Position numbers and translations under genes: made by a program. From assembly GCA_048939245.1 (NCBI GenBank), contig JBHLPR010000037.1:1-20784 (forward strand): DNA of 20,784 nt, in the 5' to 3' direction. Below the pieces are notes generated by a model that worked only from the letters and a program-made list of their open reading frames with translations, was not told the origin of the DNA and ran no database searches. Below are positions 1-15,002 of this stretch, piece after piece (the stretch's first letter is position 1; the number at the start of each line of letters is the position of its first letter). This DNA is from Promethearchaeota archaeon (GTDB lineage Archaea > Asgardarchaeota > Hermodarchaeia > Hermodarchaeales > Hermodarchaeaceae).

Positions 1-3000
1 ATCACTTGGAAGGGAAATATTATACCAACCAGAAAGCCCTGTGGGCTTTAAGAACCCCGAGAGATTCCCCCAGACATATTGAATATTTGCGCCAGTAATG
101 GGTTGTAAATTATTGTCGTGGAATTCCACAAGCACGGTGAAATTTTCACCCCATTCTACAAGGATTACCGGCGTATCGGATTCAAGGTACGCAGGCATAA
201 CGATTAGAGATACAGAAATAGTTCGAAGTTGTTCAATGACATTTGGATGACTTGCCGTGATATAGATCGTATATTGTCCAGCATCTAAACCTGAGGAATT
301 AATCATCACAGTAAATGTATAGCCACTATCATAAGTCAGCGTAGCATTGCCTCCTGCCCAATTGAAGTAAACGGTGGCGTTTGGTAATGCTGCACCATAT
401 ACGGTACTGAAATTAGCGGAAACTTGGAAGGAATCCCCAGCAACGACAGGAGACCCTGGTCCTTGGACTGTAAGAAGCGAATCAATCGGCAGAATATTGA
501 GCATAATAATTCCGATGCTAGTTTGATAGTTAGGGAGATTACTCGCTTCAATAGTAACTAGATAAGTCCCCACGCTTTGATTAGCCAGGAATGTAATATT
601 ATACACTCCACTACCGATGAATACCAAATTCGAAGGGGTGAGTCCAGCCCAATAATATGTAACTTGTGTGTTGTTCATTAACCGATTATATTCGTCGGTG
701 ACTCGGACTGAGATATTAACCGCTGTTTGATACTCTGCGGTCCAAGGAGAAACGGATAAAACTTCTATATGCAGCGGTAAGGGATTAATTGTAAATTGAA
801 CATTTTGCTCACTTGTGTCGTAATTAGATTCAGAAAACCGGATAGTGAAATTGGCTAGCCCTATATCTTCAGCTGAACTGTTGATTTGTAATAAATAGGT
901 GCCATCCATATATTTTTGAACGATTGACCAGGAAGCCCAGCTTAACCAGGCAGTTACGGAGCCTCCGAATAATACGATATCATTATCAATATCACGATAT
1001 GTTGCATTGAGATAGAGGAAATCGCCCCAATATACGAAACTATCAAAGTCTAATTCCAATGTTGTTTGGATTGATCGAACGTACCCACTGATGGGAAGAG
1101 AGTGGTTTTGATAGTAAGGTGCAACATTAGACCAGGTAACGTTGATTGAGAATCGATACCAGACATTAGCCTGATCGAAGTTGTTGGTTAGAATTGTGAT
1201 GAGATAACCATTATTTCCATTGTTAATCATTATGACAGTATAATTCAAGCTTAATGCAGGATGGGAGGTACAGGCAAGAGAAATGTGAACATTCCCTGTT
1301 ACATTTTGGATTGCAGTTGTGGTATCAGTATCATTATAGAATATTGTAAAGGTAAGATTCGCCAGGTAAGGAATGGGTTGCGGAGGGACATACGAAACCT
1401 GAGTGTTACGACTACGTAAAGTAAATTCAACTGAAACTTGTTGCGATTCATAATGGGCAGAATTAAGAGTTATTATGACCATATGTGTGCCAACATCTCG
1501 ACTAGTAGTGTTTAGTTCAACGAAGTAGGTTCCATTTTGGAAATCGTATATGGTGTAATAACCAAGATCCCAATTCGCAGTGAGAAGGGCCCCAATAACA
1601 TAATCACCATGATCGGTATCTTGATAATCAATCTGGATCGTCAGATTTACGCCCCAAGCATGAGAGGAGACATATAATGGATCTGCATCTGTATCAGTTT
1701 GAACATCACGCAATGTAATTCTTACTTGGAGATTTTGGCTTGCATAATGAGACCAAGTAAGTGTGACTTGTGCGAGGTGTAACCCATTATCCCGACACGT
1801 AGTATTGAATTTTATTAGATATGTTCCGTTTCCATAAGAGTAGATTGAGTAATAACTAATATTCCAGTTAGTTGTAATTAGAGCATTACTGACATATGTG
1901 TCATGATCGATATCGAGATAATCTAATCGAACAGTGACATTATCGCCCCAAGGATGAGAAGGAAAGACGGTGTTTTCGGCTTCAAAGTCAGTTTGGATAC
2001 TTCGGAGAATAAGATCAACTTGAAGATTTTGACTAAAATAATGTTCTAAAGAAACGGATATCCCAATCGAATGGCTTCCGATTTCTCGACATGTGGTATT
2101 TATTTCGATAAGATAAGTGCCGTTACCTAAATCATAGATGGAATAGTAGCTAGCATTCCAATCAGTTGTTAGGAGGGCTCCTGAGATGTATATACTGTGA
2201 TCAAAATCCATGTAATCAATTTTAATTGTAACATTGTCTCCCCACGGATTTGATGGAATGTAGCCCGGATTAACTGTGTAGCCGGTTTGGATCTTGCGTA
2301 AAGTAAGAGCAACATCAATAAGTTGACTAACATAATGCAACTGACTTAGGTTAATTTGAAGGTAGTATGTACCAGCTTCGCGACATGTAGTATTGAGTAT
2401 AATAAGGTAGGTTCCGTTTCCAAGATTGTAAACAGTATAGAAAGTGGCGTTCCAATCAACAGAAATTATTGCATTTACGACGTAGTCGTTATGGTCTTGA
2501 TCTATATATTCAATGTGAATTGTAATGTTATCTCCCCATGGATGAGACCATATGTAGGCTGGATCGATGTTAATATCAGTGACAATGTTTCGTAGGGTAA
2601 GATCAATCTCTATAATCTGTTGAGTGTAATGGCTTCGAATGAGAGTGATCTGAAGAAGATGGGTTCCAATTTCACGACAAGTAGTATTGATTTCTATTAG
2701 ATAGGTTCCGTTTCCAAGCCAGTAAATGGAATAATAACTTTCGTTCCAATTCGTCTCCATTTCAGCAAATGGAATGTATCCACCGTGGTCCAAATCCAGA
2801 TAATGGACTCGGATTGTTAGATTATCGCCCCAAGGGTGTGATGGAACAAATAATGGATCAGCTTGGTAATTTGTTTGAATATTTCGACTTACAAAACTTT
2901 GTAATGTCATGAAGGTTTGATAATGACCTTTACTAGCATAGATATGAATTGTGTAGCTTCCTTCTAAACGGCTTTCTGTTCGAATTGTAAGAATGTAAGC

Positions 3001-6000
3001 ACCGCTGGTTACATTATAGAAATAGCTCCAGTAGAACTCATCCCAATCACAAGTAAATGTGGCATCTAAGATAGAATTGAAACCGTGATCCGTATCATTG
3101 AAGGTTAAAGTGATTTTGAGTGCGTCTCCCCAGGGAACAGAGGTTCCGGGATCTATAGCGATAATATAGAGGGCTGTTAATCTGTCTCGAACTTGGAATG
3201 AAATTGCTACTTGAGCTGTCTCGTAATGTATTTTTGTAAAAACGAAGTTAATCGTATAACTCTGCAACCCTGTGCTGACTTTGCTTGTATTTAGTGTAAC
3301 AGTGTAAGTTCCATTGCCATGGTCAATAATCCAATAATCAACACCTTGTATATCATCAAGCCAACTGAAGCCAATTAGAGCATTATCTATTCCAATATAG
3401 CCATGATCCGTGTCGTTGAGGAGCAGCACTAAGGTTACATTGTCTCCCCAAGGTACTGATCCAGTTACAGCAGACCCTGAGGCGTAGGTTTTGATGGATG
3501 AGATTGTTATTGCGAAGTATTGGTTTTGAGTTGTATAATTGGTTCGGCTGAAGTATATCGTCACATCATAGGTTGTTTCGGTGATATTTCCCCAGAAGGT
3601 GATTGCATAGGTGCCATTAAGGTAGTTTTGGATTGAATATTTGCCTGCTTCGTAGCCATCAATTAGAATAGTTGCATCTGAAATAAATGTGGAACTGCCT
3701 GTGACAATATCTGTGAAGTTGAATCGAACAATGAAGTCGTCATCATAGGGGATTTCAGCAGTAGAACGGGGATGGTCTTTTGTTAATTGAGTAGCTCGGG
3801 ATTCGACGCTAATCCGAATTTTGATGGTCTGCGTCGCATGGGCCATTTGAGTAGCGTTTATATAAACATCAGTTTGTCCTAAACCCAAAATGGTCGAGTT
3901 GAGACCATAGTAATAGTATCCATTGCTTGTCTCGGCAAGTGATGTAAGATCGGAGCCGATAAGAATTTTAACGGTTGCGCCGGTGATTCCAAATGAAGTA
4001 CTTTCATTGATATAGCAGACTGTAATATTCAGAAGCTCATTCCAGTAGAGATGTGCCGTATAAACATCGGTATCATTTTCAAACTGGGTCCACCCATCAC
4101 CTGTACCTGTAGGCGGATATTCTATCTGGGTTCGGACAGCATCAAGATTTGTGGCAAAAGAGACAATTTTGATTACAATTGTGAAATTTTGCCATTCATA
4201 CTCCCAATCATATGAGCCACTAATGTGCATGGTTATAACGTATTTGACGGCTTCGACATCACCATATGACGAATCGTACCTAAGGAATATTGTAGGATCA
4301 ATATCATCAGGGACAAAGTGATCAGTATCAATAAGAGTCCAGCTTGTCACACCGGTGGGGTCTTCATAATATGTATAATTGACCCGCACATTATCTTTCC
4401 ATATTCCTGAATCATTTCGAACATAAGTACTTAGATAGGGGTCATAAAAGCGCACTTGACTTGTATAACCTTGATCTCGTGTCGTTTCTGCTGTATATTC
4501 ATCAGGGCCAGTTAGCTGAGTAGGTTTAATCATTACATACTCTAAATCATTGACAAGGTTGATGACAAACGTCAGATGAGTGCTGTCATCGTAGGTTGCA
4601 TTAACAAAGCCATATCGGAGGAGTTCAACATAGATTTCAATAGATTGACCTGGGCTCATGGTGCCTGTATTAAAAACGAGCGAGTAAGCCCCAAATCCAT
4701 TTGCAGTCATGAGTTCATATTGGACGTGAAGATTGCGATCAACATACCGGACACGAGCAGAAGCATCAGAGATGTATTCTAAGGTATCATTATTTTGCCA
4801 GGTTACATTAACAAGAACTGTCTCATCCCAGATTACTCGTTGTTGGTCGCCAGGTGAAATTTTAGTACCTCGGCTTGGAATAACGACTGCAAAGGAGTGT
4901 TGTAGCATACCGCTCTGGGTTGCATTATGGTAAGCCATGGTGGCAAGCCATGCACCTCCTGCATCTGTTTCTTGGATACTTGGAATCTGCCAAGCTGAAC
5001 TTGTTAAGGTCTCATTATGTTCATGAAATGTTGGTGAAATATCAGATTGCCACAAAGTCTGATTCGGATAAAATAATGAGACATTTGCAGTATGGCTTCC
5101 GGAACCAATTGGTCGTAATAAGGCTTTAGCCCGAATCCATTCACCAGCTACGAAGTATTGATCGGTGCTGACATTAACCCAGTTTCCCAAGCCCGTGGTG
5201 CTTTTTTGTAAGTACATTTGAAGAATGTAATTGAGACTTGTGGCGATGATTGAAAAAGTATCTTCTGACTGTGCGATTCCATCGTCTAGTTTCACAAAGC
5301 GACTGGACGTATTATAGCTGTAAGTGGTTATTACCTGCCCTGTGTCATTTCTAACTTCACTTAGGCTCCACAGAGGCTCAAGATAAACTCCAAAGGAATA
5401 ACCAACGTGACCACTGGGAGGTTGATCGCTAGGAATTGAGTAGTTTATCTCCCAACTTGGATTAGCATCCACGGGAGCGGAAAAAGAAGTTGTCGCAGAT
5501 GTTGAGGATTGGTGTTTGATATACATCGCATAATCATAATGAAAGGTAATATTGAAAGAAGAGGTGAATTGAAAGTTTTGAGTTGTTGTCCAGCAATTAG
5601 TTATTGGCACTTCATCGCGATTGGCGGGATCTGCATAAAGGAGTATACTACCAGTTTGGGCACCAGTGTCGGAAATAGGTTCACCATTAAGTTTGAGGGC
5701 GACCTCACTAGGTTTACTTGGGGTATCTAGGACATATCGGAAGTTATCAAAGTAAATGTGCCCATTAACATAACTCCATTTTGAGCCACCTTGTTTCATG
5801 ACGGTTATTCGAAGAGTGACTGTACCATTAATTGGAGTAGTGGTCATTGAATGATGATCCCAACTTGTGGGATGATAAGTATCTGTGGTTTGTTGCCAGC
5901 TAGCAATAAGCGTGGCTTGGTATTCTAGACTAATATTTACATATAGCCAGTTTTGTTGGGTGATATCATTGGAGAATTTTATATCAAATGAGAATGTGAG

Positions 6001-6570
6001 CGTTGAAGGGGAGATAGCTGATGTGTATTCGAAATCACTTTCAAGATAAGCGATGGCTGTGGTTAATCTTGTATACCCATATCGTAAGGTGATGTCCATA
6101 CAATCTCCAGGTGTTCCTCCCGTGCCATTATCGATGCTGGAGAGGATTCGGTTGGCATCATTATAAGGTTCTTTCCCATTTTGGGTCAGAGTCCAATTGT
6201 GAACTTCATAGTTTATATCACTACCAGCAATGTGGAAATCCTCGTTGTACTTATCGAAATCGCCGTTAGGAATTGGATCTTCCGTTCTTGCGAGATTTGA
6301 AACACTCGTGACCAGTTGATACCCCCCATATCCTGAAGGAAACCAGCTTGCATCATAATTAAAGGCTGTAGCATTTACCCCATCCGTGAAAGTGCCACTA
6401 TCATTACGCGCAAATTCAAAAACATCGAGTACCCCACCACTTCCAGTATATGGAGAATTTGGTGGTGCACCAGCATGAACAGGAGCAAGTGGATTTTCTG
6501 AAAAGGAACCAAGGGAGATACAAGCGAAAAATAATACCACCGTTAATACACGTATTTTCATATTCCCCAT
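1..6570 (-). CDS. Giant secreted/cell-surface glycoprotein (>=2190 aa, 3' end outside the window) with an N-terminal CBM-like domain and tandem Ig-like beta-sandwich repeats
   Basis: Translated by hand. ATG at 6570 follows GGTGAT, with an in-frame stop upstream at 6583-6585. It begins MGNMKIRVLTVVLFFACISLG (signal peptide-like) and reads open to base 1 (...GWYNISLPSD). IPNGDFD...YFDNFRY resembles a jelly-roll CBM. It has repeated PWGDN...DxDH...GNGTY...NTT units and many N-x-S/T sequons. Probably absent from the ORF track because it has no stop codon in the window. Confidence 0.92.
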   Translation of the reverse strand, partial: MGNMKIRVLTVVLFFACISLGSFSENPLAPVHAGAPPNSPYTGSGGVLDVFEFARNDSGTFTDGVNATAFNYDASWFPSGYGGYQLVTSVSNLARTEDPIPNGDFDKYNEDFHIAGSDINYEVHNWTLTQNGKEPYNDANRILSSIDNGTGGTPGDCMDITLRYGYTRLTTAIAYLESDFEYTSAISPSTLTFSFDIKFSNDITQQNWLYVNISLEYQATLIASWQQTTDTYHPTSWDHHSMTTTPINGTVTLRITVMKQGGSKWSYVNGHIYFDNFRYVLDTPSKPSEVALKLNGEPISDTGAQTGSILLYADPANRDEVPITNCWTTTQNFQFTSSFNITFHYDYAMYIKHQSSTSATTSFSAPVDANPSWEINYSIPSDQPPSGHVGYSFGVYLEPLWSLSEVRNDTGQVITTYSYNTSSRFVKLDDGIAQSEDTFSIIATSLNYILQMYLQKSTTGLGNWVNVSTDQYFVAGEWIRAKALLRPIGSGSHTANVSLFYPNQTLWQSDISPTFHEHNETLTSSAWQIPSIQETDAGGAWLATMAYHNATQSGMLQHSFAVVIPSRGTKISPGDQQRVIWDETVLVNVTWQNNDTLEYISDASARVRYVDRNLHVQYELMTANGFGAYSLVFNTGTMSPGQSIEIYVELLRYGFVNATYDDSTHLTFVINLVNDLEYVMIKPTQLTGPDEYTAETTRDQGYTSQVRFYDPYLSTYVRNDSGIWKDNVRVNYTYYEDPTGVTSWTLIDTDHFVPDDIDPTIFLRYDSSYGDVEAVKYVITMHISGSYDWEYEWQNFTIVIKIVSFATNLDAVRTQIEYPPTGTGDGWTQFENDTDVYTAHLYWNELLNITVCYINESTSFGITGATVKILIGSDLTSLAETSNGYYYYGLNSTILGLGQTDVYINATQMAHATQTIKIRISVESRATQLTKDHPRSTAEIPYDDDFIVRFNFTDIVTGSSTFISDATILIDGYEAGKYSIQNYLNGTYAITFWGNITETTYDVTIYFSRTNYTTQNQYFAITISSIKTYASGSAVTGSVPWGDNVTLVLLLNDTDHGYIGIDNALIGFSWLDDIQGVDYWIIDHGNGTYTVTLNTSKVSTGLQSYTINFVFTKIHYETAQVAISFQVRDRLTALYIIAIDPGTSVPWGDALKITLTFNDTDHGFNSILDATFTCDWDEFYWSYFYNVTSGAYILTIRTESRLEGSYTIHIYASKGHYQTFMTLQSFVSRNIQTNYQADPLFVPSHPWGDNLTIRVHYLDLDHGGYIPFAEMETNWNESYYSIYWLGNGTYLIEINTTCREIGTHLLQITLIRSHYTQQIIEIDLTLRNIVTDINIDPAYIWSHPWGDNITIHIEYIDQDHNDYVVNAIISVDWNATFYTVYNLGNGTYLIILNTTCREAGTYYLQINLSQLHYVSQLIDVALTLRKIQTGYTVNPGYIPSNPWGDNVTIKIDYMDFDHSIYISGALLTTDWNASYYSIYDLGNGTYLIEINTTCREIGSHSIGISVSLEHYFSQNLQVDLILRSIQTDFEAENTVFPSHPWGDNVTVRLDYLDIDHDTYVSNALITTNWNISYYSIYSYGNGTYLIKFNTTCRDNGLHLAQVTLTWSHYASQNLQVRITLRDVQTDTDADPLYVSSHAWGVNLTIQIDYQDTDHGDYVIGALLTANWDLGYYTIYDFQNGTYFVELNTTSRDVGTHMVIITLNSAHYESQQVSVEFTLRSRNTQVSYVPPQPIPYLANLTFTIFYNDTDTTTAIQNVTGNVHISLACTSHPALSLNYTVIMINNGNNGYLITILTNNFDQANVWYRFSINVTWSNVAPYYQNHSLPISGYVRSIQTTLELDFDSFVYWGDFLYLNATYRDIDNDIVLFGGSVTAWLSWASWSIVQKYMDGTYLLQINSSAEDIGLANFTIRFSESNYDTSEQNVQFTINPLPLHIEVLSVSPWTAEYQTAVNISVRVTDEYNRLMNNTQVTYYWAGLTPSNLVFIGSGVYNITFLANQSVGTYLVTIEASNLPNYQTSIGIIMLNILPIDSLLTVQGPGSPVVAGDSFQVSANFSTVYGAALPNATVYFNWAGGNATLTYDSGYTFTVMINSSGLDAGQYTIYITASHPNVIEQLRTISVSLIVMPAYLESDTPVILVEWGENFTVLVEFHDNNLQPITGANIQYVWGNLSGFLKPTGLSGWYNISLPSD
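1370..3460 (-). repeat. Intragenic tandem protein repeat, ~98-106 aa per unit; at least 7 clear units, five motifs spaced exactly 294 bp apart
   Basis: The P/A codon of (P/A)WG begins at 3453, 3135, 2835, 2541, 2247, 1953 and 1659 (spacings 318, 300, 294, 294, 294, 294). More degenerate units lie near 1371 (PYLAN), 1030 (YWGD) and 150 (EWGEN). Confidence 0.9.
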
Positions 6571-6753
6571 GTCTATCACCGACTAGTGATGAGTTAGCGC
6601 GTTCAGTCCCCACTGTACAGCCGCTCCTTCTAGGCTTAGAAACGAAATTTAAATAGATTTTGTGAAATGCGCGCTTAAGGAAAAATCCACAATTTTTTCG
6701 AAACATGAAAGATAATTAAAGGACAAATCCGGTTGAAGAGCAGGAACTTCATT

Positions 6754-8447: not shown

Positions 8448-9704
8448 ATGAGTAATGGAGAAGTGAGAGCAATTAGTATCATCGAAGTGAAGGAATTAAC
8501 CAAGATTTTTGAGGATAACCTGACAGCAGTTGACCACATTTCATTTACTGTCGAAGAAGGAGAAATTTTTGGATTCCTCGGACCCAATGGAGCCGGAAAA
8601 ACGACAACCTTGAATATGCTTGCAACCATCTTAAGACCCACTAGTGGAACCGCAGTAATCAACGGATTTGATATTCACGAAGACCCAGATGCTGTTCGAC
8701 GGAGTATTGGATTCGTTTTCCAAGACCCGACATTAGACACCGAACTCACAGGTCGCGAAAATCTTGATTTTCACGGACGTCTGTATGGTCTGTCAAAGAA
8801 AGAACGACAGGAACGCATTGATGAAATTCTTAAAGTCGTTCAGCTCTCTGATCGAGCAGATGCTTTTGTGAAAACATATAGTGGTGGGATGAAGCGACGG
8901 CTTGAGATAGCTCGTGGTCTATTACACTATCCGAAAGTACTATTTCTCGATGAACCAACTTTAGGCCTCGATCCACAAACACGACGAGCTATCTGGGACT
9001 ATATAGTCAAACTCAATCAGGAGCAGAACGTAACGATCATTTTAACCACCCATTATACTGAAGAAGCTGATCATTTGTGTAACCGTATTCAAATTATCGA
9101 CTTTGGAAAAATCGTCGCTAACGACACCCCAGAAAATTTGAAAGCCACCCTGAAAGGCGATGTAGTGGGTCTTACTTTCACTGAGCCTGAGGATGCTCAA
9201 AAGCTACTCCCAGAATTAAACGGCATTGAATGGGTGCAAACTGCCCTTCCGGTGGCAGGGAATAATAGCCAGTTGGGTTTGAGCCAGATGAGCCAAATGC
9301 TCCATCGAATAGCAGGTGGAAGCGGAATAAGCACAATGGGCGCAATGGGCGGTATGAGTGCCATGGGTGGTGGTAGTGAAGGTGGAAAACCTGAGATGCC
9401 TAAAGACCCAGAGAAGGTGGCGGAACTGATGCAAAAAATGGGAAGCCACTTAGGACCAAAACAAAATTTCCGGCAAGTGAACCTATTCGTAGATAACGCT
9501 AGTAAAAGACTTCCGGAGTTAGTTAAGATCGTCGCTAAAGCCGGAGTTGAACTCGCCTCTGTCCAAATGCATAAACCCACATTGGACGATGTCTTTCTTA
9601 CGGTGACAGGACGAAGCATACGGGATCAATCAGGGAGCATGATGCAGATGTTTCGCCAATTTCGTACAATTAGCCAAGCCCGAGGCAGGAGAACACCCCA
9701 TTAA
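8448..9704 (+). CDS. DrrA-like ABC exporter ATP-binding subunit
   Basis: Walker A GPNGAGKTT, signature YSGGM, Walker B LFLDEPT, H-loop TTH and C-terminal PTLDDVFLTVTG. Confidence 0.95.
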   Translation: MSNGEVRAISIIEVKELTKIFEDNLTAVDHISFTVEEGEIFGFLGPNGAGKTTTLNMLATILRPTSGTAVINGFDIHEDPDAVRRSIGFVFQDPTLDTELTGRENLDFHGRLYGLSKKERQERIDEILKVVQLSDRADAFVKTYSGGMKRRLEIARGLLHYPKVLFLDEPTLGLDPQTRRAIWDYIVKLNQEQNVTIILTTHYTEEADHLCNRIQIIDFGKIVANDTPENLKATLKGDVVGLTFTEPEDAQKLLPELNGIEWVQTALPVAGNNSQLGLSQMSQMLHRIAGGSGISTMGAMGGMSAMGGGSEGGKPEMPKDPEKVAELMQKMGSHLGPKQNFRQVNLFVDNASKRLPELVKIVAKAGVELASVQMHKPTLDDVFLTVTGRSIRDQSGSMMQMFRQFRTISQARGRRTPH

Positions 9705-11046: not shown

Positions 11047-11619
11047 CTACTCCTTAATCAGAGGAAAATGGGAGGGATTTCTTTTTCGGAATTCATCTTC
11101 AAGGATATCCATGAGAAGGACGTCTTTGAATCGCCCATCCTGGAATAGTGCTTGTCGGTGCCGTGCAGAATGTTTGAATCCTACCTTTTCGTAAGCATGA
11201 ATGGCGCGAGGATTGTCCTCATGTACGTAGAGGTATATGCTGTGAAGGTTGAGAAAATTGAATCCGTATCCCAATAGAAGTTTGAGGGCTTCTTTTCCAT
11301 ACCCTTTACTCCAATATTGTTTGTTCCAAATCGCAATTCCAAGCTCTGCAGAACGATTAATTGGATGAATATCAAAGAGACTACAAGTTCCAATTAGAAG
11401 GTGGTTTTGCTTCAATTCAATTCCAAAAATATATTCCCTTCCTTTTTTTCGGTTTTCCCAGGTGTTGCGAATCCATTTTTCTTCTTCTTCCTGGGAAATT
11501 GGAATTGGAGGTCCGAGAAATCGTTGAAATTCAACATCATTGAAGTGTTTGACGACTTCTCCAGCATCTTTTAGTTCTAATCCACGGAGTAGTAGGTTTT
11601 TGCCTGTTATCATTGCCAT
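11047..11619 (-). CDS. GNAT N-acetyltransferase, RimJ/RimL family (paralog of the adjacent gene)
   Basis: WSKGYGKEA, LNLHSI and NPRAIHAYEKVGFK. The start is more likely ATG 11619 or 11613, after GGTGAT and matching the paralog's N-terminus, than 11712. Confidence 0.9.
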   Translation of the reverse strand: MAMITGKNLLLRGLELKDAGEVVKHFNDVEFQRFLGPPIPISQEEEEKWIRNTWENRKKGREYIFGIELKQNHLLIGTCSLFDIHPINRSAELGIAIWNKQYWSKGYGKEALKLLLGYGFNFLNLHSIYLYVHEDNPRAIHAYEKVGFKHSARHRQALFQDGRFKDVLLMDILEDEFRKRNPSHFPLIKE

Positions 11620-11693
11620 ATCACCTGGCATTGAAGCTTGGTTGAACAGAGAATTACTGGAAGGGCTATTTTTCTGTTTCTTATTAGAGGGAT

Positions 11694-12227
11694 TTATTGA
11701 GGAAAGTTCCAACCCATCATTTGGCGGATTGCATGTCCAGTAAAACTCATGACCAAAATGAAAGGCGTGGCGAGAACCAGAAATAAAAGAAAACTTTGGG
11801 CATAGAGCAGGCTAAAGCCAACAACAACTTCCTGGAGAATGGCAACCCAATCTGGAGAAGTACCCCAAATCCATTCATAATGAGGGATGAGTGTTGATCC
11901 GTAGGCAGGATTCAACAGAAGCAGAACATACAGGATTAAGTAATTTACAATTAGGAACAGAAAGGGACCAAGGAAGGCTGCTACAACGACATCCTTTGTT
12001 TCAAAGTTTACGAGGAAACCGATAAGAAATGCCATGCCAGCAAAGGTAAACAGATAGAAGAAGAAGTCAAATGCAGCGGTAGGTGAGAGAGGATTGATGA
12101 GGTAAGTAAATTTTGTACCAAAAATTAAGAAGTGAAGCCAATCGATGCCTATGAGAGCTAAACACATCACTCCGGAAATTACGATGATGTGTCGCCAAAC
12201 AACTTTGGGTGTGATATCCTGTGCCAT
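11694..12227 (-). CDS. Hypothetical integral membrane protein (~4 TM)
   Basis: 177-aa ORF with about four long hydrophobic stretches; no family recognised. Confidence 0.75.
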   Translation of the reverse strand: MAQDITPKVVWRHIIVISGVMCLALIGIDWLHFLIFGTKFTYLINPLSPTAAFDFFFYLFTFAGMAFLIGFLVNFETKDVVVAAFLGPFLFLIVNYLILYVLLLLNPAYGSTLIPHYEWIWGTSPDWVAILQEVVVGFSLLYAQSFLLFLVLATPFILVMSFTGHAIRQMMGWNFPQ

Positions 12228-12490
12228 GTGGTATGCCCCTACTTTCTTATGAAGAAACTAGAATTTTAGAGGATTTCTAGGCTTTGCCTATTGAGTATTA
12301 AAGTTCATGGTTTTGAACAAGTATTATGAATGTTTTTTCATTGAAAAAAAATAGGATTGAGTGGGTGCTAAATTTTACCTTTTGCTGTTCGTTCAGTTCT
12401 AGTTTTCGTTTAGGCTTTCGTTCTATCGAAATAAAGAGTATTTAAGGTTGAAGTTTGTAGAGATAATTTAATGGTTGAGGGTGAATTTGA

Positions 12491-13894
12491 GTGGTCCGAT
12501 TTCGTAAAACCCACTTGTATCTTGTCTGGTGTATTCTCATTCTATCCTTGTTCTTTGTAAATTGGGTTGGACTCAGGGACCGTTATGTCACGCATTCCTT
12601 TTCCACCAACGATGTTACTCAAATCGCCCTTGGGGACATAGATGTCTATAAGCCGGGTTTAGAAATGGCTTATCTGACGCCCTCTAGTGTCTATATCATT
12701 GGTGGGCTTTCCTCAACTCCCTGGCAAAACAGCACATATCAAAACGTTGATTGGGAAATTAATCCCCTGATTGCTTTGACTGTGGGTGATTTTGACATCA
12801 ATCATAAGGGAGACGAAATCGCTGTTCTTATGGAAAATGGTCTTTTGAAAATGATTTATCGAGGATTAGCTATCTGGCACACAGTGGATATTGGTATGCT
12901 TCCGGATGAACCTCCGGTCTGGACCACTAATCAAATGTTTGCTGGTCAACTCATCGCGTCATCCGAAGCCAACGAAATTGCGATTGTCGGACAATATTAC
13001 AATTGGACCACGACAACGTCAAGTGGTCGCATCTATGTTGCGAATCGAGTCAATGACACGATCTGGGAAATTAATCAGATTCACGAAGAACCCACACCAT
13101 TGCTATCGGGTACAGTGGGTGATGTGGATACAGGCAATTCAGGTGAAGAATTAATTGCTGGTGGAGTTGATAACTGCATTTTCTATCTAGGCTATGATAA
13201 TGGAAGTTGGACAGAAACACGGTTTCATCCGTGGCTGGGTCTTAGCAAATCAATTTCAGTGGGAGATTTCATGGTTTCCCATTCGGGAAATGAAATTGCT
13301 GTGGTAAGGGACCAAGACATCTTTGTATTCTATAAACAATCAGGCAATTGGACCAGCTCCACAAGCTGGGTTGCCCGGTTTATGGATGTTGGCATTGAAT
13401 CCGTGTATATTGGTGATATTGATCCCTTTAGTCCTGGTCAAGAGATCTTAGGTGCTGGAACCTCCTTGAATGATAATCAGCCAACGCTGGTAGTATTACG
13501 GTATACATCTCTTTGGGTTCCGACCATTCTCTCAACTTTAGCTGAACCCCCAACTTCCATTGCTGTAACTAATTTTGATTTTAGCCGTATGGGCACCGAG
13601 ATCCTCATCGTTTATTCCCCTCAAATCGCAGTCTTATCGATACCTAATGGATTGGATCGGATATTCCGAGCAGGACAAACCGTACTTCTTCCTGCAATTC
13701 TGCTTCTCCCAGCGACAATCTTGTTATTTGCAGCAGCGGATTATTTAGGACGAGTAGCAGAGGCACGTCGTCGAAACCGCACTCTGGAAATGGTTTCGAA
13801 AGGTTATGTGAAATGTCCAATCTGTAAACGGTTCATTCCCAAGGACAAAGCAGAAGCGCATCGAAGGTGGCACCAAACGATGCAGTTTCGGTAG
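12491..13894 (+). CDS. Single-pass membrane protein: signal/anchor, 7 FG-GAP-like repeats (predicted beta-propeller), TM helix, cytoplasmic C2H2 zinc finger
   Basis: GAGGGTGA RBS lies before GTG. Seven hhhGDhD-x4-G-x-EI-type repeats, TM VLLPAILLLPATILLFAAA, basic RRRNR and CPICKRFIPKDKAEAHRRWH. Confidence 0.85.
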   Translation: MVRFRKTHLYLVWCILILSLFFVNWVGLRDRYVTHSFSTNDVTQIALGDIDVYKPGLEMAYLTPSSVYIIGGLSSTPWQNSTYQNVDWEINPLIALTVGDFDINHKGDEIAVLMENGLLKMIYRGLAIWHTVDIGMLPDEPPVWTTNQMFAGQLIASSEANEIAIVGQYYNWTTTTSSGRIYVANRVNDTIWEINQIHEEPTPLLSGTVGDVDTGNSGEELIAGGVDNCIFYLGYDNGSWTETRFHPWLGLSKSISVGDFMVSHSGNEIAVVRDQDIFVFYKQSGNWTSSTSWVARFMDVGIESVYIGDIDPFSPGQEILGAGTSLNDNQPTLVVLRYTSLWVPTILSTLAEPPTSIAVTNFDFSRMGTEILIVYSPQIAVLSIPNGLDRIFRAGQTVLLPAILLLPATILLFAAADYLGRVAEARRRNRTLEMVSKGYVKCPICKRFIPKDKAEAHRRWHQTMQFR

Positions 13895-13895
13895 C

Positions 13896-15002
13896 TTATG
13901 ATTTTAGAACGCGCCTGGGAAGTTCCTGCAACATTGTAGCCGCATCTTTGATGATGGTATCAATTAGCTCAGCAACGGTAGGTAAATTCGTAATTCTTCC
14001 ACTCACTTCTCCCCCAAACATGAGTGCCGTGTTGGCTTTGCGGTCTAAAAGGTCCATAAATCCTGATTGCTCCAGTTGTAGAATGGCTTTGTTTGATTCC
14101 ACGGGCTCTCCCAGATAGAACCGGGGAGCATCATCCAATGTTTGTTCGACTAACATTTCAGCGCGTTTATTGCGTAGAAACCGCATTGGACCGAACAAAC
14201 CTCGGCCAACTAAGGTTTGACGTTCTTCCCGTGAGGTGATTGCTTCTTTCCAGATAGGTTCGAAATCAGCCTCTTGTGTTGCAATAAACCGGGTACCCAT
14301 TTGAATGCCTACAGCACCTAAACATAACGCTGCAGCCAACGAATCACCGTCACTAAATCCCCCTGCAGCCACAACAGGTTTATTCACAGCTCGAGCCACC
14401 GCTGGCACTAGGACCATTGAATGCACCGGATCCCAAGAAACGTGGGCCCCCCCTTCATGACCAGAAGCCACAATCACATCAGCACCAGCTCGCTCAGCTT
14501 TCTTTGCATGATATACGGAGGGAACCACATGAATCCAGATCAGCCCATGTTTCTTGACTTCCCCCCAGGGCATCGGATTACCTGCAGAGGTAATGAGCAC
14601 GCGGAGACGCTTCTCAATATCTGAGTCGGCTTTCCGTGCTTCGATGACTTGCTCCACAAACATTTTGGAGGCTAGTAAAAATTCTTTGGCTACAGGCACG
14701 TTAACCCCAAAAACACCCTTTGACGATTTTGTCCTCTTGGCTACTGCTTCCATGGATTTTTGTAACAACACTAGGGGCGGATCATCCCCAAATAATCGCT
14801 TGGCATCAATAGGCGCTGCTTCTGGTAACAGAGTGGCCGCCATCCCTATACTGCTAATCACACCTAACGCCCCCGCATTAGAGACAGCAATAGCAAGGTC
14901 CTCGGTCTTGTAGGGTCCCATTCCACCCTGAATAATCGGAACTTTAAGACCCAAAAGGTCACAGAGCTCGGTACGAAGATGCGTCATGTTATAGCCTGCC
15001 AT
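13896..15002 (-). CDS. Nitronate monooxygenase / FabK (enoyl-ACP reductase II)-family FMN TIM-barrel oxidoreductase
   Basis: PIIQGGMG, GHEGGAH (catalytic His region), VVAAGGFSDG and GIQMGTRF. Confidence 0.92.
   Translation of the reverse strand: MAGYNMTHLRTELCDLLGLKVPIIQGGMGPYKTEDLAIAVSNAGALGVISSIGMAATLLPEAAPIDAKRLFGDDPPLVLLQKSMEAVAKRTKSSKGVFGVNVPVAKEFLLASKMFVEQVIEARKADSDIEKRLRVLITSAGNPMPWGEVKKHGLIWIHVVPSVYHAKKAERAGADVIVASGHEGGAHVSWDPVHSMVLVPAVARAVNKPVVAAGGFSDGDSLAAALCLGAVGIQMGTRFIATQEADFEPIWKEAITSREERQTLVGRGLFGPMRFLRNKRAEMLVEQTLDDAPRFYLGEPVESNKAILQLEQSGFMDLLDRKANTALMFGGEVSGRITNLPTVAELIDTIIKDAATMLQELPRRVLKS

Follow-up and report, generated by a model that had tools for sequence, protein, structure and literature searches.

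The DNA analyzed here (the window) is a stretch of 20,784 nucleotides (nt), positions 1 to 20,784 of contig JBHLPR010000037.1 from a Promethearchaeota archaeon, and it carries a gene for a membrane-anchored beta-propeller protein that ends in a zinc finger. The gene is a single open reading frame at 12491..13894 on the forward strand, a complete coding sequence with a GTG start that encodes 467 amino acids (aa) plus stop (Table 1). The reading slightly favored here is that its product, the window protein, is a lineage-specific transmembrane receptor or sensor, ordered as a first transmembrane helix (TM1), an extracellular sensor, a second transmembrane helix (TM2), and a cytoplasmic output. 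An earlier reading made from the letters alone (the sequence-only reading) had placed the feature at 12491 to 13750, with seven repeats between an N-terminal hydrophobic segment and a C-terminal transmembrane segment followed by RRRNR. These elements are all present. The repeats, of roughly 50 aa each, lie at residues 45, 96, 149, 207, 255, 305, and 357 (nt 12623, 12776, 12935, 13109, 13253, 13403, and 13559), and the invariant Glu residues that mark them are 48 to 58 aa apart. The proposed start also stands, but the proposed end does not: the gene continues for 144 nt past 13750, with RRRNR just beyond that position, and closes in a C2H2 zinc finger.

The GTG start is supported by the homologues of the protein, which begin with MVRFRK, by the Shine-Dalgarno-like sequence GAGGGTGA, and by a conserved TATA-like box, AGAGTATTTAAGG. 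In an alignment of 10 orthologous loci, the GGTG of the Shine-Dalgarno sequence is invariant (10/10), and the sequence upstream of the TATA-like box is unalignable. The stretch between the box and the Shine-Dalgarno sequence (12448-12476; TTGAAGTTTGTAG.AGTATCTTA.TGGT) is almost as conserved as the promoter in the 10 loci and may be a conserved leader or regulatory site.

Table 1. Coordinates of the propeller gene, its upstream signals, and the parts of the encoded protein
Feature	Position in window	Strand	Residues	Basis or remark
TATA/B recognition element (BRE)-like promoter element AGAGTATTTAAGG	12435..12447	+		Near-invariant in 10 orthologous upstream regions
Shine-Dalgarno-like GAGGGTGA	12477..12484	+		6 nt before GTG start
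Coding sequence	12491..13894	+		467 aa plus stop; full-length homologues 21-100% identity
TM1, probably retained N-in signal anchor	12515..12571	+	9-27	Hydropathy; modelled helix 6-27
Seven-bladed FG-GAP-like beta-propeller	12584..13639	+	32-383	28 strands in AlphaFold2 model
Blade 1, loop GDIDVYKPGLE	12620..12742	+	44-84	
Blade 2, loop GDFDINHKGDE	12767..12898	+	93-136	
Blade 3, degenerate loop GQLIASSEANE	12920..13090	+	144-200	Bears invariant sequon N171
Blade 4, loop GDVDTGNSGEE	13100..13222	+	204-244	
Blade 5, loop GDFMVSHSGNE	13241..13369	+	251-293	
Blade 6, loop GDIDPFSPGQE	13388..13537	+	300-349	
Blade 7, strands 1-3, loop TNFDFSRMGTE	13556..13639	+	356-383	
TM2, conserved prolines P401 and P407	13679..13741	+	397-417	Hydropathy; AlphaFold2 model
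RRRNR basic cluster, cytoplasmic side	13766..13780	+	426-430	
C2H2 zinc finger G-[YF]-x-x-C-P-x-C-x11-H-x3-H	13802..13891	+	438-467	Invariant ligands, modelled fold

The AlphaFold2 model, run on an alignment of 19 sequences (predicted local distance difference test score [pLDDT], 85.8; predicted template modelling score [pTM], 0.75), contains a helix at residues 6-27, 28 beta-strands within residues 32-383, a long helix at residues 387-436, and a beta-beta-alpha unit at residues 439-466. The strands follow the order of one strand of blade 7, four strands for each of blades 1 to 6, and three strands of blade 7. Judging from this strand order (DSSP) and the alignment ranges, the N-terminal strand at residues 32-38 is predicted to be the fourth strand of blade 7, a "velcro" closure of the ring. 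Model residues 30-385 were compared with known structures in an exhaustive VIA search. The highest score was that of aldos-2-ulose dehydratase (AUDH, 4a7k; Z 29.6, 334 residues aligned), followed by a BBSome subunit (Z 28.1, 294 residues), a KICSTOR subunit (Z 28.0, 315 residues), and the heads of integrins alphaIIb, alpha5, and alphaV (Z 27.3-28.0, 329-332 residues). The lectin BP39L (Z 26.6, 319 residues), CRTAC1 (Z 25.7, 333 residues), the lectin CV39L (Z 24.9), and WD40 propellers (Z 24-26, about 290 residues) came next. Foldseek ranked AUDH (4a7y/4a7k) and CRTAC1 first, and all 10 of the nearest 10 structural clusters in the ESM Atlas carry FG-GAP or FG-GAP_3. The model thus supports an ectodomain that forms a closed propeller with seven blades, FG-GAP in structural type, as the sequence-only reading had expected when it proposed this comparison.

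That reading had also called the repeats FG-GAP, which holds for the fold but not for Pfam, where the window protein has no hit. Pfam and NCBIfam searches with the window protein gave nothing significant. Among the 25 family members, FG-GAP_3 appeared below threshold in 5 (best E value, 9.7e-4), and no member attained the cut-off of FG-GAP (PF01839) or FG-GAP_3 (PF13517). A six-frame search of the window genome with PF13517 gave no match. Sequence searches of the PDB with phmmer and with a 19-sequence profile returned no meaningful match and no FG-GAP protein. Among the phmmer relatives, P0031 scores 59.9 bits and P0040 scores 40.4 bits, both above the FG-GAP_3 cut-off, and P0040 combines the long loops GDLDPDREGAE and GDIDKQYPGNE with one canonical loop, GDADNDGTTE. 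The nearest named relatives of the propeller by sequence are hypothetical proteins of Thermoplasmata, not eukaryotic proteins.

The prokaryotic FG-GAP_3/VCBS propellers (PF13517; Thermoplasmata P0036, P0038, and P0039; AUDH) have the same fold as the window protein, and homology to these relatives is detectable (phmmer E values, 1e-29 to 1e-10), with the GDxDxxxxGxE loop and one Trp per blade in common. Unlike the window protein, they are mostly 600-1000 aa long, have extra Ig-like domains, and have no zinc-finger tail, and the window protein remains below threshold in Pfam. The relatives that pass FG-GAP_3, the common loop motif, and the FG-GAP structural neighbours together place the propeller as a divergent FG-GAP-like one, a remote homologue of the FG-GAP_3 proteins. 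The sequence-only reading had pointed to the acidic Ca2+ loops of the FG-GAP repeats of integrin alpha, where D-x-D/N-x-D/N-G-x-x-D hairpin loops bind Ca2+ in blades 4-7, but that motif is absent here. The blade loop is D-x-D-x4-G-x-E and joins the first two strands of each blade, the position of the integrin Ca2+ loops. Compared with D-x-D-x-D-G-x-x-D, it is one residue longer and lacks the third of the acidic positions; in blades 3 and 5 the Asp pair is missing as well.

The flanks of the two hydrophobic segments have consistent charges in essentially all 25 members: the net charge falls from +2/+3 on the N-terminal side of TM1 to about 0 on its other side, and it rises from +1 just ahead of TM2 to +2 to +5 beyond it. 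The ectodomain of the window protein has five N-x-S/T sequons. Among 19 orthologues, sequon N171 is present in all 19, N80 in 17, and N237 in 16, while N188/189 is present in 7 and 13, respectively; N116 occurs in 15 but is absent from the window protein. The conserved sequons are confined to the propeller. Zinc fingers belong in the cytoplasm. The flank charges (N-in, C-in), the conserved sequons, and the place of the finger therefore strongly support a cytoplasmic N terminus and a glycosylatable propeller on the outer face of the membrane, in agreement with the extracellular location that had been proposed from the sequons. Only residues 384-396 separate the propeller from TM2, which bears out the earlier remark that leg domains are lacking. 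An archaeosortase/PGF-CTERM-type sorting signal was considered for the C terminus and rejected, as the basic cluster is followed by 40 conserved residues that include the zinc finger.

The sequence-only reading took the protein to be single pass. TM1 has an identity of 0.68 in distant orthologues, compared with 0.41 for the propeller, and the residues at its junction with the propeller (N24-W25-x-G27-L28-x-x-R31-Y32) are invariant or nearly so. No small-x-small (A-x-A) cleavage site follows TM1. The better conservation of TM1 and the lack of a cleavage site favor a retained N-terminal anchor, and the protein is therefore probably a two-pass protein anchored at both ends, as judged from sequence comparison.

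There is strong support for TM2 continuing into a conserved basic helix that is followed by one cytoplasmic C2H2 zinc finger. Finger residues C442, P443, C445, H457, and H461 are invariant in the 25 sequences, down to 21% identity, and the core consists of F448 and a hydrophobic residue at position 454 (F-x5-hydrophobic-x2-H). The beta-beta-alpha fold was obtained in both the full-length model and a model of the tail only (pLDDT 86.3), and the helix of the finger is strongly basic. A profile of 11 tails matched classical C2H2 fingers, including finger 3 of Sp1 (E value, 3e-4), Zif268, and the consensus finger. The tail has the ligands, core, and fold of classical C2H2 fingers but departs from them in the spacing between the second Cys and the first His, which is x11 rather than x12, and in its Pfam score (best zf-C2H2_4 score, 14.3 bits; cut-off, 27). 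Unlike classical C2H2 and ubiquitin-binding zinc (UBZ) fingers, with which it shares Cys2His2 ligands, the beta-beta-alpha fold, and an aromatic/hydrophobic core, it stands alone, about 20 residues from the membrane helix to which it is tethered. A search of the window genome for a second copy of the 50-aa tail found none.

A word-indexed search retrieved 23 proteins with 47-100% identity, nearly all of 466-468 aa. Their named sources are metagenome-assembled genomes (MAGs) of Promethearchaeota and Hodarchaeota, so the host is an Asgard archaeon, on which the sequence-only reading had made its interest in the protein conditional. Exhaustive HMMER searching added the full-length proteins P0025-P0029 (34-38% identity) and P0047, P0055, and P0089 (21-25% identity), with the whole architecture kept. 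The architecture is not a product of chance, since homologues of 21-88% identity retain the length, the repeats, the two hydrophobic segments, and the finger. In addition to the finger residues given above, G438, P407 of TM2, five Trp residues, and four of the seven blade Glu residues are invariant in the 25-sequence alignment, and the propeller carries one conserved Trp per blade. In distant orthologues, identity is 0.41 in the propeller, 0.62-0.68 in the transmembrane helices, and 0.80 in the finger. No part of the protein is better conserved than the finger (0.80-0.87, against 0.41-0.66 for the propeller). Within the family, P0029 (530 aa) has a Pro/Arg/Glu-rich extension of about 60 residues beyond the zinc finger and is the sole length variant observed, and P0047, P0055, and P0089 keep the propeller, transmembrane segment, and finger with a less basic finger helix (H-I-x-L-H).

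The distribution of the gene was determined in a sample of 400 genomes of the phylum representing 33 families. The gene is single copy in the window genome, occurs in 14 of the 18 other genomes of the same Asgard family, and was found in none of the 381 genomes from the 32 other Asgard families. The protein family is lineage specific and confined to one sampled Asgard family. A metagenome scan yielded 10 further loci from sediment-type metagenomes, with the same architecture as the known members. When P0047, P0055, and P0089 were used to search genome contigs, only generic propeller relatives were found, in a Thermoplasmata MAG and a Phycisphaerae MAG.

The neighbours of the gene include GNAT acetyltransferases, a 177-aa membrane protein, a nitronate monooxygenase, and RidA. 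The order of 177-aa membrane protein, propeller, nitronate monooxygenase, and RidA is conserved in both genera of the family, which may merely reflect their relatedness. The gene of the 177-aa protein (11694-12227, -) is divergent from the propeller gene and encodes a multi-pass membrane protein for which no Pfam family and no informative ESM Atlas neighbour were found. There is overlap between its end and the beginning of the GNAT gene downstream (11047-11712), and its pairing with the propeller gene was observed in 8 of 12 orthologous loci, including the second genus, where the propeller identity is 36%. The nitronate monooxygenase gene (13896-15002, -) converges on the propeller gene, and with 1 nt between their ends (13894-13896) no room is left for separate terminators. 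Elsewhere in the window, an open frame of at least 2,193 aa (1-6579, -) runs off the edge.

Prokaryotic receptors of the TM1-sensor-TM2-output type with beta-propeller sensors include PknD-type kinases and the hybrid two-component systems of Bacteroides. The window protein probably has the same topology, but its output would be a 30-aa finger rather than a kinase, HAMP, or helix-turn-helix domain. This standard prokaryotic layout, together with a fast-evolving ectodomain and a slowly evolving tail, a gradient like that of LINKIN, is the basis for reading the window protein as a receptor. LINKIN (ITFG1), a metazoan adhesion protein, has seven atypical FG-GAP repeats that form a propeller near the membrane, is encoded by a single-copy gene, and has an intracellular domain that is more conserved than its ectodomain (PMC4275582). 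It is a type I protein of about 600 aa with a cleaved signal peptide and Dx(D/N)xDxxxD motifs, and its tail of 22-24 aa has no zinc finger and binds RUVBL1/2 and tubulin (PMC4275582). Compared by description, LINKIN shares the near-membrane propeller, the single copy, and the conserved tail with the window protein and is the best analogy for how the latter may work.

In the model, both membrane helices would leave from blade 7 through short linkers of 4 and about 13 residues, since the N-terminal strand completes that blade, and the propeller would thus be rigidly coupled to a helical transmembrane hairpin. The fast-evolving propeller would bind something outside the cell (for example, a glycan, a protein, or the surface of a partner cell), and the slowly evolving hairpin and tail would relay this binding to a partner of the finger in the cytoplasm. 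Given the strong positive charge of the finger and its classical C2H2-like core, the partner would most likely be a nucleic acid or the acidic surface of a protein or lipid, and less likely ubiquitin. A stronger version, in which the finger is a true signalling output that acts on DNA or RNA at the membrane like a ToxR-like one-component regulator or engages ubiquitin in a noncanonical manner, is doubtful. Under that version, one 467-aa chain would connect an FG-GAP-like propeller sensor outside the cell with a C2H2/UBZ-like finger of eukaryotic style.

Several observations weigh against the receptor reading. A single short finger could be a plain adaptor between proteins. No operator-like motif was found in the upstream alignment, where the conserved elements are the core promoter, the leader, and the Shine-Dalgarno sequence, and no operon partner that hints at a pathway was found among the neighbours. 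No RNA run containing the locus is listed. TM1 could be a cleaved signal peptide, as A-x-A-like sites follow the hydrophobic segment in the distant subgroup P0047, P0055, and P0089. In addition, the WD40 propellers trail the FG-GAP ones by only 2-5 Z units, a modest margin, so the propeller superfamily is not fixed from structure alone.

The protein might instead play a passive part at the cell surface as an adhesin, a lectin, or a scaffold of the envelope, with a propeller that binds glycans or neighbouring cells and with helices and finger that only anchor or position it and take no part in signalling. The good matches to the seven-bladed lectins BP39L and CV39L, the conserved Trp of each blade, and the conserved glycosylation sequons are all in keeping with such a role, as is the giant surface protein gene at 1-6579 in the same window. 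This role is nevertheless unlikely, because the finger and the transmembrane helices are far more conserved than the ectodomain and a mere anchor needs no zinc finger that is kept invariant down to 21% identity.

A quite unlikely alternative is that the tail is a UBZ finger linking a surface receptor to the Asgard ubiquitin/ESCRT machinery, for example, for sorting or turnover. The C-x2-C-x11-H-x3-H spacing is that of a UBZ, and weak Pfam matches were found to zf_UBZ in 13 of the 25 members (12-14 bits against a cut-off of 25.6; best E value, 0.039) and to zf-WRNIP1_ubi in 4 of the 25. Foldseek ranked the UBZ fingers of WRNIP1, TAX1BP1, Pol eta, NDP52, and RAD18 at the top for the tail model, with a root mean square deviation of 0.8 A over 29 residues for Pol eta, all at E values of >1. 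The genome also encodes ubiquitin beside an E2 enzyme. On contig C54 (5780-6593), a ubiquitin gene (6411-6593; PF00240, 44.5 bits) adjoins an E2 gene (UQ_con, 116.6 bits), and a second UQ_con match lies 3 kb away (9217-9498), forming a eukaryote-type ubiquitin cluster. However, the Pfam and Foldseek scores are all nonsignificant, and the profile of the tails fits UBZ fingers (E values of 0.023 for WRNIP1 and 0.094 for RAD18) less well than it fits finger 3 of Sp1. In the UBZ of Pol eta, the Asp two residues after the first His (D652) is reported to be essential for ubiquitin binding (PMC2965212). The equivalent position in the family is R, K, E, N, or A and in none of the 25 sequences D, and the strongly basic helix is a further point against a UBZ.

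Still less probable, and very unlikely, is an integrin-alpha homologue or precursor, that is, a minimal adhesion receptor with a Ca2+-loaded head specifically related to integrin alpha or LINKIN. The sequence-only reading had likened the propeller to integrin alpha, and as far as the fold is concerned the likeness was borne out: the heads of integrin alpha rank near the top of the structural matches, with about 330 residues aligned. Like the integrin head, the propeller is closed, seven-bladed, and extracellular on a membrane protein and has a conserved acidic loop between strands 1 and 2. The host is an Asgard archaeon, and LINKIN is built on a similar plan, with its propeller at the membrane and a tail that is short and highly conserved (PMC4275582). 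Other observations weigh against the reading. No sequence or profile match to integrin or any other FG-GAP structure was found; the D-x-D/N-x-D-G-x-x-D motif, the thigh and calf domains, and the GFFKR-type tail are all absent; and the window protein has a finger and probably two membrane helices. AUDH, a nonintegrin enzyme propeller, scores higher. No match to Integrin_beta (PF00362), the obligate partner subunit of integrin alpha, was found in the 88%-complete genome, and none was found in the control genomes either. The sequence-only reading had further thought the protein relevant to the origin of eukaryotic adhesion receptors, which its nearest named relatives in Thermoplasmata and its restriction to one Asgard family do not support. 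The window protein is not an integrin alpha and has no present bearing on integrin origins, as its propeller belongs among prokaryotic FG-GAP-like proteins and better candidates, canonical FG-GAP membrane proteins, exist elsewhere in Asgard archaea.

One protein of canonical type is encoded in the same assembly, on contig C36 (4052-5722; L035:1053-2723, +). In this 556-aa protein, a hydrophobic segment at the N terminus precedes seven canonical FG-GAP repeats (PF01839, 126 bits) with D-x-D/N-x-D-G-x-x-D loops and "GAP"-like ends, followed by an acidic linker, one transmembrane segment, and an RKRRKP tail, with no zinc finger. It shares with the window protein the plan of an N-terminal hydrophobic segment, a seven-repeat propeller, a C-terminal transmembrane segment, and a basic tail, and of the two proteins it is the better fit to a minimal integrin-alpha head on a single-pass anchor. 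It was found in none of the 18 other genomes of the family and in 30 of the 381 other Asgard genomes, with full-length matches of 52-60% identity in another Asgard family (f31). Since it has no match in its own family and has matches in another, contig C36 may have been binned wrongly (contamination is estimated at 3.6%) or acquired by horizontal transfer. A passage of PMC9258230 notes "integrin repeat-containing ESPs" (eukaryotic signature proteins) in Asgard archaea, citing Liu et al. 2021; the text of the Liu et al. 2021 preprint has no mention of integrin, and a literature search on Asgard together with FG-GAP found no papers.

The weakest alternative, an enzyme tethered to the membrane on the outside of the cell and acting, for example, as a sugar dehydratase or a polysaccharide lyase (AUDH, PL11), draws on the best structural match and on weak RGL11_C and AUDH_beta_propeller Pfam matches in some sequence relatives, but it is extremely unlikely because the AUDH propeller is one domain of a multi-domain chain of 879 residues and has nothing but the fold in common with the window protein (14% identity), the window protein has no Pfam match to enzyme families, and no genes for carbohydrate utilization lie next to it.

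FG-GAP propellers and C2H2 fingers are each well known singly, and no account of their combination across a membrane was found in Pfam, NCBIfam, or the papers searched. In this uncultured Asgard group, the cytoplasmic finger evolves much more slowly than the ectodomain, as would be expected if a receptor had a conserved partner inside the cell and as is seen in metazoan LINKIN. Should the finger prove to be a true signalling output, the family would represent a way of signalling across the membrane, not described before, in the archaeal relatives of eukaryotes. An identified partner would reveal how the cell surface is coupled to the cytoplasm in these archaea, which bears on how they sense or hold syntrophic partners.

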